A DNA stretch of 4,334 bases from a virus. Lineage: Duplodnaviria; Heunggongvirae; Uroviricota; Caudoviricetes. The DNA lies in IMG/VR virus record IMGVR_UViG_2671181050_000015, positions 1-4,334 of that record; one strand, written 5' to 3'. Each line of letters starts with the position of its first letter. The first letter of the stretch is position 1. Below, piece after piece: positions 223-4,334 of this stretch. The position numbers and the translations under genes were made by a program. The notes under the pieces were generated by a model. It worked only from the letters and a program-made list of their open reading frames with translations, had not been told where the DNA came from and did not search any database.

Positions 223-818
223 GCGAAATTAATTATCAGGCACTGCGTGAAAAGGCAGAGAAAGCAACTAAAGGAAGCTACATCGTAGGGCATACATCTG
301 TTAACCAACACGGCAATTTAACAGGAGTTTTTGTTTGTCAAAAATGGAAAGGAGAACCCGGTGGCGTGATTGCGGAATGTCATGTTAACTGCCTGATTGA
401 AACAGATGCTCAGGCTTATGCAAACGCTGAATTCATAGCAGAGGCTAACCCGGCTACCGTGCTGGCACTGCTGGATGAACAGGAAAGAAACCAGCAATAC
501 ATCAAACGCCGCGACCAGGAGAACGAGGATATTGCGCTTACGGTTGGGAAGCTGCGCGTTGAGCTTGAAGCAGCAAAATCAAAACTCAACGAGCAGCGCG
601 AGTATTACGAGGGAGTTATCTCTGATGGGTGCAAGCGTATTGCTGAACTGGAAGCGCGGGAAGTTCAATTACCGACTCGCTACGACCTTCGATATGGACA
701 CCCGATAAATGCAGATGAGCGACAAGTCATGATACCTAAAGAAAATGGCAGTTGGCTTTACCTGATTGACCTAGAACACGCATTACGCGTCGCTGACATT
801 CGCATCAAAGGAGAGTGA
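219..818 (+). CDS. Ea22-like (ead/Ea22 family) coiled-coil prophage protein, 199 aa
   Basis: GTG start at 219 preceded by GAGG (209-212) at 6 nt spacing. No in-frame ATG until near the C-terminus, so GTG is the likely start. N-terminal NYQALREKAEKA... and ANAEFIAEANPATVLALLDE followed by a heptad-rich central region (KLRVELEAAKSKLNEQ) match my recollection of ead/Ea22-like prophage proteins. Family call is from memory. Confidence 0.6.
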   Translation: MSEINYQALREKAEKATKGSYIVGHTSVNQHGNLTGVFVCQKWKGEPGGVIAECHVNCLIETDAQAYANAEFIAEANPATVLALLDEQERNQQYIKRRDQENEDIALTVGKLRVELEAAKSKLNEQREYYEGVISDGCKRIAELEAREVQLPTRYDLRYGHPINADERQVMIPKENGSWLYLIDLEHALRVADIRIKGE

Positions 819-819
819 T

Positions 820-1335
820 ATGGCGTTAACACACCACGAACTCTGTCAGATTGCGTACAAGTTCCTTAAGCGCAACGGGTTCAAGGTTTGCTTTCATGAC
901 CGCTTTGTTGCTGTAACCAGTACCGGAGAACAGCCAGATGCTATGGGATTCAGAAATTCAGCATCATGCCTGATAGAGGCGAAGTGTTCTCGTGCTGACT
1001 TGTTGGCAGATAGAAAAAAGCGTTTCCGTAAAAATCCCTCACTTGGCATGGGCGACTGGCGATTCTTTATTAGTGAGCCGGAAATTATTTCAGTTGAGGA
1101 TTTACCTCCCGGCTGGGGATTACTTCACGTTGTTAACGGAAGAGTACGGAAAGTACATGGATGGCCCAGGGGTAATTGCTGTTGGGGTAATCCTGACGAT
1201 AAGCCATTTACCGGGAATAAGCAGGTTGAATGCGATTACATGTTATCTGCATTAAGGCGCATGGAGTTGAGAGGGCACCTTAATGAAATATATGACGGTG
1301 TGATTGTTAATAAGAAAGAAGGAAACGCGGCATGA
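820..1335 (+). CDS. PD-(D/E)xK nuclease-fold protein (possibly MmcB-like), 171 aa
   Basis: ATG at 820 with AAGGAG (808-813) 6 nt upstream and 1 nt after the previous stop. Canonical signature present: P39-D40 (nt 934-939) then E53-A-K55 (nt 976-984), i.e. PD-x12-ExK. Stop overlaps the next start (ATGA 1332-1335). Confidence 0.6.
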   Translation: MALTHHELCQIAYKFLKRNGFKVCFHDRFVAVTSTGEQPDAMGFRNSASCLIEAKCSRADLLADRKKRFRKNPSLGMGDWRFFISEPEIISVEDLPPGWGLLHVVNGRVRKVHGWPRGNCCWGNPDDKPFTGNKQVECDYMLSALRRMELRGHLNEIYDGVIVNKKEGNAA

Positions 1336-2276
1336 TCACTATTACCAAAGGGCGACTGCTGACAATCAAGCAGTGGCGCGAAACATACGGACCGGGTAGC
1401 AACGTTGTACTGCCAGCAGAAGAAGCGGAAGAACTGGCACGGATTGCACTGGCATCATTGGAAGCAGATCCAGTTAAACGAGTTAACTCAGATCAGATGC
1501 ACCGAGTCTGCTTAGAAGCTAATCGCTATTTAGATAAATATGACGCGATGGCAAAAGAGGTAAATAAGTTGCTTGGACGCATCGCCCCACCAGCGCCAGT
1601 ATTTAACGGCGAATACGGTGACGCATATCAGGGCGCTCGTGAAGACCTGTCCATCTGGAAACGGCGAGCGCTTGAAGCTGATGAGCACGTTCGGCGACTG
1701 GAGCAAATCAATGACCACATGGTGAAAGAGGCGCAGGGAGAATCACGCATGGGCGAGCCTGTAATACGTGAGCCAGCACCGGTAGTGCCTGAAGAAGCAA
1801 CTCCGGAAAACGTAGAAATGCTCTCTGGCTATGTTTCAACGTACAAATTAACCGATAGCGAGCGCGATATTGCTGCCGAAATATGGAACGCCTGCCGCGC
1901 CGCCATGCTTCAGTCCGGAAACTTTCGGGAAAACAAGAATTCGTCAACCAATAATTTTCGGGAAATCGCGGAAACGTCAACCAACTATCCGGCAATTCCT
2001 AGTGAGGTGTTGTCCGCAATCCTGAAGGTTGCCAGGATTCGTGCCGATTTCGATGATTTTGACGGTGACAGGCGAGGTATCGGTGATTGTCTGGATGAGG
2101 CTGAGCAAGAGCTTATCGTTACCATTAACAAATATGCCAGTCAGTTGGCAGCAGAACCTATAGCGCCTAATGACGTTCGAGAGCAGACAGCCATTCCACA
2201 AGTTCCGGTAACTCCGGATGGTTGGATAAGCTGTAGTGAGCGAATGCCGGACGACAGGCAGGAGGTGAATCAATGA
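1332..2276 (+). CDS. Hypothetical prophage protein, 314 aa, ending inside a DUF551-like motif (DGWISCSERMPDDRQEV)
   Basis: ATG at 1332 overlapping the upstream stop; GAAGGA 8 nt upstream. Long uninterrupted frame with ordinary codon composition. The C-terminal WISCSERMPDD resembles the start of the DUF551 domain (W-I-x-[VC]-x-[DE]-R-[LM]-P-[ED]) but the ORF stops about 15 residues into it. Contains an internal 11-aa tandem repeat (NFRENKNSSTN / NFREIAETSTN). Confidence 0.6.
   Translation: MITITKGRLLTIKQWRETYGPGSNVVLPAEEAEELARIALASLEADPVKRVNSDQMHRVCLEANRYLDKYDAMAKEVNKLLGRIAPPAPVFNGEYGDAYQGAREDLSIWKRRALEADEHVRRLEQINDHMVKEAQGESRMGEPVIREPAPVVPEEATPENVEMLSGYVSTYKLTDSERDIAAEIWNACRAAMLQSGNFRENKNSSTNNFREIAETSTNYPAIPSEVLSAILKVARIRADFDDFDGDRRGIGDCLDEAEQELIVTINKYASQLAAEPIAPNDVREQTAIPQVPVTPDGWISCSERMPDDRQEVNQ
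1920..1985 (+). repeat. Imperfect 33-bp tandem direct repeat (2 copies) inside the 314-aa ORF
   Basis: Unit 1 (1920-1952) aactttcgggaaaacaagaattcgtcaaccaat versus unit 2 (1953-1985) aattttcgggaaatcgcggaaacgtcaaccaac. 25 of 33 positions identical, in frame, giving the 11-aa duplication NFRENKNSSTN / NFREIAETSTN. Confidence 0.7.
2260..2267 (+). promoter_or_regulatory. Shine-Dalgarno (AGGAGGTG) for the 27-aa peptide gene
   Basis: AGGAGGTG at 2260-2267 is an 8-nt perfect complement to the 16S rRNA 3' end, placed 5-7 nt before ATG 2273. It lies inside the last codons of the upstream ORF. Confidence 0.6.
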
Positions 2277-2356
2277 GCTGGCCTGATGCAATCGTAACTC
2301 TGGGGGTGGTATTCGCAGCAGCGTTTGTTGTGTTCTCGATTTGTCGATGGGGATAA
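2273..2356 (+). CDS. Small hydrophobic single-pass membrane peptide, 27 aa (MSWPDAIVTLGVVFAAAFVVFSICRWG)
   Basis: Not in the supplied ORF track (too short). ATG 2273 overlaps the upstream stop (ATGA) and follows a perfect SD at optimal spacing. A roughly 19-residue hydrophobic stretch is flanked by an acidic N-side (D5) and a basic C-side (R25). Fills the only otherwise non-coding 84-nt gap in a compact operon. Confidence 0.5.
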   Translation: MSWPDAIVTLGVVFAAAFVVFSICRWG

Positions 2357-2759: not shown

Positions 2760-3014
2760 ATGCAGACAATCATCTATCAGATAACCCCCAGCAAATGGTG
2801 TACGGAGAGAGTCCTCATTGCATCAACAGGGCTAAAGCCTGGCACCATTGAGCGGGCAAGAAGAAAGTCATGGATGCAGGGAAAAGAATACCGCCATTAC
2901 GCTGTAGAAGGTGATCCGGGGCACTACAGTGAATGCCTGTACAACATCGAAGAAATTATGCGATGGATCGAAAACCAGAAACAACCAGGTGCCAAAAATG
3001 CAAGTTCCGGTTAA
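2760..3014 (+). CDS. xis: Putative excisionase / recombination directionality factor, 84 aa
   Basis: ATG 2760 with GAGG (2751-2754) upstream. Small basic protein immediately upstream of and co-directional with the integrase. The pattern W-x(~11)-TIERARR-x2-W-x2-GKEY parallels the lambda-Xis-type arrangement (W...TVRRW...GREY) as I recall it. Confidence 0.6.
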   Translation: MQTIIYQITPSKWCTERVLIASTGLKPGTIERARRKSWMQGKEYRHYAVEGDPGHYSECLYNIEEIMRWIENQKQPGAKNASSG

Positions 3015-3047: not shown

Positions 3048-4334
3048 ATGAGTAACGCATCATACCCGACAGGCGTTGAAAACCATGGAGGATCACTCCG
3101 TATATGGTTTCACTATAATGGCAAACGTGTCAGAGAAAACCTCGGTGTTCCTGACACAGCCAAAAACCGGAAGATCGCTGGTGAACTTCGCACTTCCGTT
3201 TGTTTTGCAATCAGAATGGGGAGTTTCGACTACGCCGCGCAGTTCCCTAATTCCCCTAACCTGAAACACTTTGGTCTGGGAAAAAGAGAGATAACCGTTA
3301 AGGCACTTTCGGAAAAATGGTTGGACCTTAAGAAAATTGAGATTTGTGCGAATGCACTTAACCGTTACCAGTCAGTAATTAAAAACATGTTACCAATGTT
3401 AGGTGAAAAAAAACTGGTTTCATCCATAACAAAAGAGGATTTACTTTTCGTAAGGAGAGATTTGTTGACCGGTTACCAAAAGCTTTCTAATGGAAAGACT
3501 TCTTCCATAAAAGGGCGCTCAGTGGTCACGGTAAACTACTATATGACAACCATAGCTGGAATGTTTCAATTTGCAACAGATAATGGTTATACCTCAGGAA
3601 ACCCATTTAACGGTCTGGCTCCCTTAAAAAAGTCCAAGGTAAAACCAGATCCTCTCACCCGTGACGAATTTATTCGTTTTATTGAGGCTTGCCGTCATCA
3701 ACAAACAAAAAACCTGTGGATTCTCGCTGTATACACGGGTATTCGTCACGGGGAGTTGGTATCGCTGGCATGGGAAGATATAGACCTTAAAGCAAGGACT
3801 ATAACCATCCGTAGAAATTATACAAAACTTGGCGAATTCACTCCACCAAAAACCGATGCAGGCACCGGAAGGACAATTCATCTGGTTCAACCAGCTATTG
3901 ATGCTCTTAAAAGCCAGGCGGAAATGACCATGCTTGGAAAGCAACATTCTGTAGAGGTGAAGCAGAGGGAATATGGGAGAACTGCTGTGCATAAATGCAC
4001 TTTTGTTTTTAGTCCTCAGGTAACAAAACAGCAGCAGTTGTCCGGACCTCACTACAAGGTTGACTCCATCAGGGAGTCATGGACAAGTATCTTAAAACGC
4101 GCAGGTCTGAGACACAGAAAATCGTACCAATCCAGGCATACTTATGCATGCTGGTCACTTGCCGCTGGAGCTAATCCTAGTTTTATCGCAAGCCAGATGG
4201 GCCACATAAACGCACAAATGGTATTCAATGTTTACGGAGCATGGATGAAAGACAACAATCACGAACAGATAGAACTCCTTAACAAAAGACTATCTGAAAG
4301 TGTCCCATGTATGCCCCATAAGAAAGTGGGGTAA
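3048..4334 (+). CDS. int: Tyrosine-type site-specific integrase, 428 aa, with N-terminal arm-type DNA-binding domain
   Basis: ATG 3048 with GGGAGG (3038-3043) upstream; TAA at 4332-4334. N-terminal PTGVENHGGSLRIWFHYNGKRVRENLG is the arm-binding (DUF3596-type) motif seen in IntS/IntR-like enterobacterial prophage integrases. Catalytic signatures present: TGIRHGEL (Arg box I), SRHTYA (box II) and GH...VYGAW (His and catalytic Tyr). More AT-rich than upstream genes. Confidence 0.93.
   Translation: MSNASYPTGVENHGGSLRIWFHYNGKRVRENLGVPDTAKNRKIAGELRTSVCFAIRMGSFDYAAQFPNSPNLKHFGLGKREITVKALSEKWLDLKKIEICANALNRYQSVIKNMLPMLGEKKLVSSITKEDLLFVRRDLLTGYQKLSNGKTSSIKGRSVVTVNYYMTTIAGMFQFATDNGYTSGNPFNGLAPLKKSKVKPDPLTRDEFIRFIEACRHQQTKNLWILAVYTGIRHGELVSLAWEDIDLKARTITIRRNYTKLGEFTPPKTDAGTGRTIHLVQPAIDALKSQAEMTMLGKQHSVEVKQREYGRTAVHKCTFVFSPQVTKQQQLSGPHYKVDSIRESWTSILKRAGLRHRKSYQSRHTYACWSLAAGANPSFIASQMGHINAQMVFNVYGAWMKDNNHEQIELLNKRLSESVPCMPHKKVG

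Follow-up and report, generated by a model that had tools for sequence, protein, structure and literature searches.

The locus considered here raises two questions: to which nucleases is the small protein encoded at positions 820 to 1335 related, and what might it do for the element that carries it? The window (the whole stretch of DNA that was analyzed, 4,334 bp in length) is the left arm of a lambdoid (Stx-phage-like) prophage. Its features, including those within the nuclease gene that are referred to throughout, are as follows.

1-222: TraR/DksA zinc-finger gene, 73 aa, lambda "orf73"
219-818: Ead/Ea22-like gene
807-822, plus strand: upstream junction of the nuclease gene, also a conserved mosaic breakpoint, with GGAG at 810-813, TGA at 816-818, and ATG at 820-822
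820-1335, plus strand: nuclease gene, 171 aa, PD-(D/E)XK fold, phrog_9263/phrog_631 family, remote sister of PF06319
934-984, plus strand: catalytic core codons, P39-D40 at 934-939 and E53-A-K55 at 976-984
988-1062, plus strand: helix-2 block (S57-R58-x-D60-x-x-x-D64-x-x-K67-x-x-R70) and G76-M-G78-D-W-R81 leading into strand 4, from conservation and the match to MmcB
1102-1122, plus strand: L95-P96-x-G98-W99-G100-L101, start of the second beta hairpin, with P96, W99, G100, and L101 at least 90% conserved
1216-1260, plus strand: C-terminal helix with the family-specific N133-K134-Q135-x-E137 and R146-R147, from conservation and helix 134-150 of the model
1332-1335, plus strand: ATGA overlap of the start of the downstream Ea22/DUF551-like gene with the nuclease stop, read from the sequence
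1332-2276, plus strand: Ea22-related gene with a truncated DUF551 end, 314 aa
Between the 1332-2276 gene and xis: DUF4222 gene, then a 44-aa ORF
2760-3014: xis
3048-4334: int

Genomic position and junctions of the nuclease gene

PhiR5_1 (PV340545.1) is 98.8% identical to the window across the aligned 83% of the window and carries the same block downstream of kil-gam-bet-exo-orf60a-...-orf61. The gene order of the window and the position of the PhiR5_1 block 3' of kil-gam-bet-exo bear out the placement of the gene by the first-pass annotation in an early-left accessory region; within the pL operon, the block is the region known as "exo-xis."

The nuclease ORF starts with ATG and has a predicted product of 19.5 kDa that is basic, with a pI of 9.0 (family median, 9.06). 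The Shine-Dalgarno sequence GGAG lies 6 nt 5' of the ATG, a single nucleotide separates the TGA of the upstream gene (816-818) from this ATG (820), and at the other end the downstream ATG at 1332 overlaps the nuclease TGA (1333-1335) as ATGA; the earlier description of the gene as translationally linked to both neighbors is correct as a statement about the sequence. A promoter or terminator of its own, as would mark a "moron" unit, was sought on either side of the gene and nothing above chance was found, so the gene is probably read from the pL transcript. No Rfam family was found within the window.

Several features of the surrounding region were observed in passing. Both genes flanking the nuclease are labelled "Ea22" in PhiR5_1. 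In the 314-aa downstream gene, only the last 16 residues match DUF551 (profile positions 1 to 16 of 68) before the stop codon is reached, and the match to BP-4795 and VT1-Sakai picks up again at 2204-2257, inside the end of this gene; judged from the sequence, it looks like a mosaic fusion with a DUF551 domain truncated by a recombination junction. The ATG of an unlisted 27-aa ORF (MSWPDAIVTLGVVFAAAFVVFSICRWG; window 2273-2356, plus strand) overlaps the stop of the 314-aa gene as ATGA. Its product is nearly all hydrophobic, resembles a single transmembrane helix, and has no PHROG match, and the ORF could represent either a small exo-xis membrane peptide or a chance ORF. In PhiR5_1, HipA toxin and "HipD antitoxin" annotations (649-2222) lie between cI and kil, a position that is unusual for a HipA-type kinase module.

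Conservation of the active site and predicted fold

The product had been read as a compact PD-(D/E)xK nuclease from two motifs, P39-D40 and E53-A54-K55, and a direct count on the translation shows that both are present. Taken alone, the motif is not beyond chance, as the loose pattern D-x(8-30)-[DE]xK was found in 63% of shuffles of the protein and the strict pattern PD-x(8-20)-ExK in 2.2%; it is conservation among homologs that identifies it as real. In an alignment of 34 homologs with 59 to 96% identity (A1), D40, E53, and K55 are invariant. Across 43 more divergent homologs with 35 to 56% identity (A2), D40 is again invariant, together with L8, D60, G78, R81, and E137, and conservation of at least 90% was found for E53 and K55 as well as H5, E37, P39, G43, S57, D64, K67, R70, G76, P96, W99, G100, L101, and R146. 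Position 7, the counterpart of the acidic residue E12 in alpha-1 of Hjc, is variable in A2, and the active site may for this reason differ in detail from that of Hjc. A QxxxY motif of the RecB/Cas4 type was considered for the C-terminal helix and ruled out, since Q135 and Y140 are wrongly spaced and Y140 varies among homologs.

Prediction with AlphaFold2 from the alignment gave a confident model (mean pLDDT, 83; pTM, 0.77), which contains a helix at residues 5 to 18, strands at 22 to 25, 41 to 45, and 48 to 54, a helix at 58 to 64, a strand at 80 to 85, a hairpin at 100 to 113, and a long helix at 134 to 150. The model has the alpha-beta-beta-beta-alpha-beta core with a central mixed sheet that characterizes the PD-(D/E)XK superfamily. 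D40 stands at the start of strand 41-45 (strand 2) and E53 and K55 lie on strand 48-54 (strand 3), so that the conserved D on strand 2 and the (D/E)xK on strand 3 are both where this superfamily has them. Between the AlphaFold2 core, the conserved D and ExK residues, and the profile matches to MmcB and Hjc given below, the claim of a nuclease fold is well founded.

The same residues bear on the idea that the protein is inactive, serving as a non-nucleolytic DNA-binding scaffold or as a regulator of lysis-lysogeny or excision in the manner of exo-xis genes or XisH-type factors. The D...ExK triad and E37, D60, D64, and E137 are invariant or nearly so, as expected of an enzyme, and the family also occurs in virulent phages and plasmids, which have no lysogeny decision to regulate. 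We consider a noncatalytic role quite unlikely.

Relationship to MmcB-like proteins and Hjc

When the single nuclease protein was used as the query, no match was found in Pfam, NCBIfam, or PADLOC, and a phmmer search of the PDB returned only noise. Kinship with MmcB and Hjc is visible only through profiles of divergent members and through fold comparison. The MmcB-like proteins (PF06319, formerly DUF1052; COG5321) include Caulobacter MmcB and SPO1766 of Ruegeria pomeroyi, whose structure, 3dnx, is the one given for DUF1052/PF06319/COG5321 in a census of PD-(D/E)XK proteins (PMC3424549); DUF1052 was tied to the archaeal Holliday-junction resolvases (AHJRs) by profile HMMs in 2005 (PMC1189080). 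The divergent-member profile found 3dnx at an E value of 2.1e-4 (profile positions 11 to 115), with Hjc chains next at an E value of ~0.1. A profile-profile comparison with 25 MmcB proteins gave a probability of 98.0% and an E value of 1.4e-13 over 96 columns, in which D40 is paired with D39, E53-x-K55 with E53-x-K55, and R81 with R76, and in which S-R-x-D-F-x-x-D and LP..GL (L90-P91..G95-L96 in MmcB) are common to both. A search with the 3dnx segment led to thousands of proteins, all of which carry PF06319 and many of which are named "MmcB family DNA repair protein." Profile and structure searches return a nuclease fold, and in the profile alignments D40, E53, and K55 coincide with the catalytic residues of MmcB and Hjc.

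The "MmcB-like" label that the first-pass annotation had mentioned for similar prophage proteins therefore holds in part: homology to MmcB-like proteins exists at the level of profile and structure, but membership in PF06319 does not, as the window protein has no match to that model at an E value of ≤1 and so does not reach its gathering threshold. Thirteen of the 43 divergent relatives match PF06319 weakly (best E value, 2.9e-4), and 28 of the 43 match the Hjc Pfam model, again weakly (best E value, 1.3e-4); the window protein itself has no match to the Hjc model PF01870, and of the Hjc tetrad E12/D42/E55/K57 it shares the aligned D, E, and K, the position of the alpha-1 Glu being variable. 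The more remote members, encoded on Pseudomonas and Acinetobacter plasmids and in Vi01 and MAR10, are all assigned to phrog_631, and they also match phrog_5429, "DNA repair protein," at 1e-9 to 1e-12. Since profile homology to MmcB is accompanied by a PF06319 model that misses the window protein and by extra motifs of its own, the protein belongs, on sequence comparison, to a separate and unnamed family that is sister to the MmcB-like proteins within the Hjc-like branch and is not a member of PF06319. It is not a new kind of protein but a new unnamed family of the well-known PD-(D/E)XK superfamily.

Distribution, mosaicism, and dispensability

The nuclease DNA, exact or 95 to 100% identical, was found in 928 of 5,426 complete E. 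coli genomes, where its annotation is always "hypothetical protein," and the carriers include many Shiga-toxin prophages. Relatives of the protein are present in 642 phage records and 864 plasmid records, and an exhaustive profile search yielded 3,284 clusters (50% identity level) at an E value of ≤1e-3, with 2,439 at ≤1e-10.

BP-4795 possesses the same backbone without the nuclease gene. Its homology to the window covers the 37-bp junction at 786-822, ends at the nuclease ATG, and resumes at 2204; these breakpoints identify the nuclease gene and most of the downstream ORF as a mosaic module swapped at a gene boundary. VT1-Sakai (AP000400.1, 2668-3178) harbors an unannotated copy with a 2-bp deletion, frameshifted such that residues 1 to 51 and 54 to 171 are in different frames. 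A 111-aa remnant (residues 61 to 171, from an internal TTG start) forms a cluster of 645 members, compared with 1,363 for the intact form, and a frameshifted allele is widespread, probably clonally in O157. The VT1-Sakai frameshift, the remnant cluster, and the lack of the gene in BP-4795 indicate that the gene is dispensable for prophage carriage in at least some prophages.

Contexts in phages and prophages

No conserved partner gene was found in 80 IMG/VR loci encoding proteins of 38 to 75% identity, in which 286 same-strand flanking ORFs fell into 218 clusters. A two-gene system, whether toxin-immunity, nuclease-methylase, or nuclease-helicase, was accordingly rejected. A Pfam tally of 148 neighbor representatives was headed by DUF551 (n = 8), Ead/Ea22 (n = 5), and dATP/dGTP pyrophosphohydrolase (n = 3), followed by DnaB, SSB, C5 methylase, ResIII, HNH, and excisionase with two each, and by single occurrences of NinG, NinB, YbcO, DndB, SNF2, Dam, and RNA ligase. 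In Vi01, the stop of the nuclease homolog overlaps the start of the gp61 primase gene, and in Vibrio phage MAR10 the homolog lies directly 3' of an SNF2/HepA helicase gene, after the polymerase and primase-helicase genes. A Pseudohongiella prophage carries it between replication and lysis genes, in a nin-like position. In a Marinobacter prophage (JGI 3300005812, 1-7900), RVT_1, an orphan C5 methylase, DUF4942, an RdgC-FtsK_gamma fusion, a DnaJ-domain protein, and a 399-aa unknown protein precede the homolog, which is followed by the Lar restriction-alleviation gene; this early operon looks like a dense anti-restriction and establishment island.

One record stood out for its label: OR844944.1 ("Enterococcus phage Efm 3-10," 38.5 kb) contains a homolog 45.6% identical over residues 4 to 113, which scores the same as those of Salmonella Kuttervirus (Vi01-like) phages and suggests that the record is mislabelled or contaminated.

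The protein could also be a prophage-encoded defense or superinfection-exclusion nuclease that cuts incoming foreign DNA, acting as a solitary restriction-like enzyme or an abortive-infection effector. However, none of the families in the PADLOC-DB 2.0 defense-system models was matched by the window protein at an E value of ≤1, a conserved methylase, sensor, or immunity partner is lacking, and no restriction enzyme is nearly as close to the protein as MmcB and Hjc are. With no promoter of its own above chance, the gene seemingly lies in a repressed pL operon and would be silent in the lysogen, and both the replication modules of virulent phages and the leading regions of plasmids are ill-suited to a host-protective role. 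We rate a defense function as highly improbable.

Contexts in conjugative plasmids

In F-like plasmids, the homolog lies in the order SSB-DUF905-ParB_N-PsiB-PsiA-[homolog]-Hok-...-DUF932-SLT-TraM-TraJ-TraY, with all genes except SLT on one strand. Its start overlaps the psiA stop, and this is the canonical leading region, which is transferred first in conjugation; plasmid pTW11681_100 has the same arrangement. These homologs share 66 to 67% identity with the window protein over residues 4 to 152 and, unlike the window gene, are located between oriT and ssb/psiB on the leading strand. A copy between psiA and hok in F itself was considered and rejected, as tblastn gave no match in F at 54 to 68 kb. 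Elsewhere, a Pseudomonas MOBQ plasmid has the order rdgC-C5 methylase-...-[homolog]-hypothetical gene-ssb, and an Acinetobacter MOBF plasmid has the homolog between tra genes and an orphan Dam methylase gene. As a separate observation, a 280-aa ORF of pTW11681_100 (6419-7261) joins an N6/N4 methylase (residues 21 to 181) to the C-terminal two-thirds of PsiB (residues 181 to 277), and a deletion appears to have joined a methylase gene of the leading region to psiB.

The supplement of Samuel et al. (2024) places a family of 325 members, labelled "YraN family / Upf89.0 / Adenylosuccinate synthase," among its "Other unknown leading families," and the same odd labels appear on plasmid homologs of the window nuclease. 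On the basis of these common labels rather than of sequence, that row (family 165) is probably the nuclease family, catalogued but not studied. Homologs in NZ_CP115618.1 (Citrobacter) and NZ_CP016173.1 (Bordetella) lie under "adenylosuccinate synthase" features, and this label is probably either a propagated misannotation or derived from a neighboring or fused PurZ-like gene. The nuclease ORF is not discussed in the main text of Samuel et al. (PMC11541004), nor is it mentioned in the exo-xis literature (PMC8614690, PMC7093339) or in a paper on early-conjugation expression (PMC12672017). The joint distribution of the family across the lambdoid exo-xis region, virulent-phage replication modules, and plasmid leading regions has not previously been described.

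These locations allow a further reading, in which the nuclease is among the first proteins made when the element enters a cell and attacks a host-side target, thereby aiding establishment of the phage or plasmid. Possible targets include the host chromosome or competitor DNA, RecA-dependent intermediates, and a nucleic acid component or signal of a defense system. Consistent with this, the homolog closes the ssb-psiB-psiA leading-region operon of F-like plasmids, leading regions are enriched in anti-defense genes (PMC11541004), and the similarly labelled family of Samuel et al. is placed among leading families. The homolog adjoins Lar and orphan methylase genes in the Marinobacter prophage, orphan methylase genes adjoin it in the Pseudomonas and Acinetobacter plasmids, and the lambdoid exo-xis region is transcribed very early, according to one report (PMC10834534). 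Against it, no similarity to known anti-defense proteins and no PADLOC match were found, the virulent-phage copies lie inside replication modules (primase, helicase, polymerase) that are a better fit for DNA metabolism, and the closest characterized relatives are repair and recombination enzymes. A nonspecific nuclease directed at the host, with no inhibitor and no partner gene, would also be risky for an element that coexists with that host. An establishment or anti-defense role is thus conceivable but rather unlikely. We are similarly hesitant to propose that phages and conjugative plasmids share an unrecognized class of establishment nucleases acting on host-side targets. Such proteins would be made in the first minutes after entry or awakening, from pL or the ssb-psiB-psiA operon, would act on targets such as RecA/RecBCD intermediates, stalled host forks, or defense nucleic acids, and would be the nucleolytic partner to the inhibitors PsiB, Gam, and RdgC.

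A proposed role in maintaining the DNA of the element

The reading that we favor, at a probability of roughly 50%, is that the protein is a stand-alone, predicted structure- or lesion-directed endonuclease that serves the element's own DNA. The fold, the conserved active site, the homology to MmcB-like proteins, the basic surface, the absence of a conserved partner, and the contexts were observed here directly; what we infer is the catalysis, its metal dependence, the class of substrate, the timing of expression, and the biological role. The proposed substrate class is drawn only from distant relatives and gene neighborhood, and neighborhoods in mosaic regions of this kind are weak evidence for function.

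In the proposed mechanism, D40 and E53 would bind Mg2+ and K55 would position or activate the attacking water, while the basic residues R45, R58, K67, R70, R81, K134, and R146/R147 would bind DNA. Cleavage would be directed by structure or lesion and not by sequence, with branched intermediates, stalled forks, and cross-linked DNA as candidate substrates. Lambdoid phages would express the protein early, through the pL transcription that follows induction or infection; plasmids would express it as part of the ssb-psiB-psiA leading-region operon, and virulent phages alongside their replication genes. Its activity would let the element go on replicating and recombining its own DNA while that DNA is damaged, single stranded, or heavily branched.

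Stx prophages are classically induced with mitomycin C. According to a review (PMC9578287), Caulobacter MmcB is an SOS-regulated endonuclease that is needed specifically for resistance to mitomycin C and cisplatin and is thought to act with translesion polymerases on cross-links. A role in repair or fork processing would fit with both points and with the occurrence of UmuC-like polymerases as another leading-region family. Several considerations weigh against the endonuclease reading, among them the variable position 7 and the dispensability of the gene in some prophages. Lambdoid phages usually already have resolvases (Rap/NinG, RusA) in the nin region, and with NinG, NinB, and YbcO found among the neighbors, a second resolvase would be redundant. 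In addition, the exo-xis region, the plasmid leading region, and the vicinity of Lar and orphan methylase genes also house anti-defense genes (PMC11541004). The probability left over by the readings discussed here belongs to explanations outside those considered.

That a small phage protein should prove to be a PD-(D/E)XK nuclease is in itself unsurprising. The family is, however, abundant, clinically adjacent through Stx phages and resistance plasmids, and common yet unnamed, having neither a Pfam nor an NCBIfam model; with a family model built from the present alignments, thousands of "hypothetical proteins" could be given an annotation. [quoted passage not shown] Should the nuclease repair or resolve the DNA of the element when mitomycin C or the SOS response induces it, this would be relevant to the yield of Shiga-toxin phage. 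Should it instead be an establishment or anti-defense factor, a nuclease would join a group that has until now consisted largely of inhibitors and methylases.

Comparison with known nuclease systems

Phage VRR-NUC nucleases, which pair with SNF2 helicases, share no Pfam VRR_NUC sequence match with the window nuclease; their fold scores are far below those of MmcB-like proteins, and an SNF2 gene adjoins the nuclease gene in only a minority of loci. YraN/UPF0102 (PF02021) is, like the window nuclease, a small predicted Hjc-like PD-(D/E)XK protein, and one UniRef entry calls the plasmid form of the nuclease a "YraN family protein." The UPF0102 model matches 2 of the 43 divergent relatives (best E value, 1.3e-4) but not the window protein, and YraN is encoded by a conserved chromosomal gene, whereas the nuclease family resides on mobile elements. 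Hjc (PF01870; structures 1hh1, 2wcw, and 1ob8) and AHJR-like nucleases have the same minimal PD-(D/E)XK core as the window nuclease. D40, E53, and K55 align with D42, E55, and K57 of Sso (Sulfolobus) Hjc, and the S-R-x-D that follows is common to both.

The MmcB-like proteins are set apart by sequence and by location. The nuclease family has an extra stretch of ~7 residues, KxFRxxPxxGMG, before strand 4, which faces a gap in the MmcB profile, as well as its own C-terminal motifs, W122, K128-P129, and NKQxE137. MmcB-like proteins are chromosomal and mostly alphaproteobacterial (PMC3424549), in contrast to the present family, which is found on phages, prophages, and plasmids, mainly of Gammaproteobacteria.
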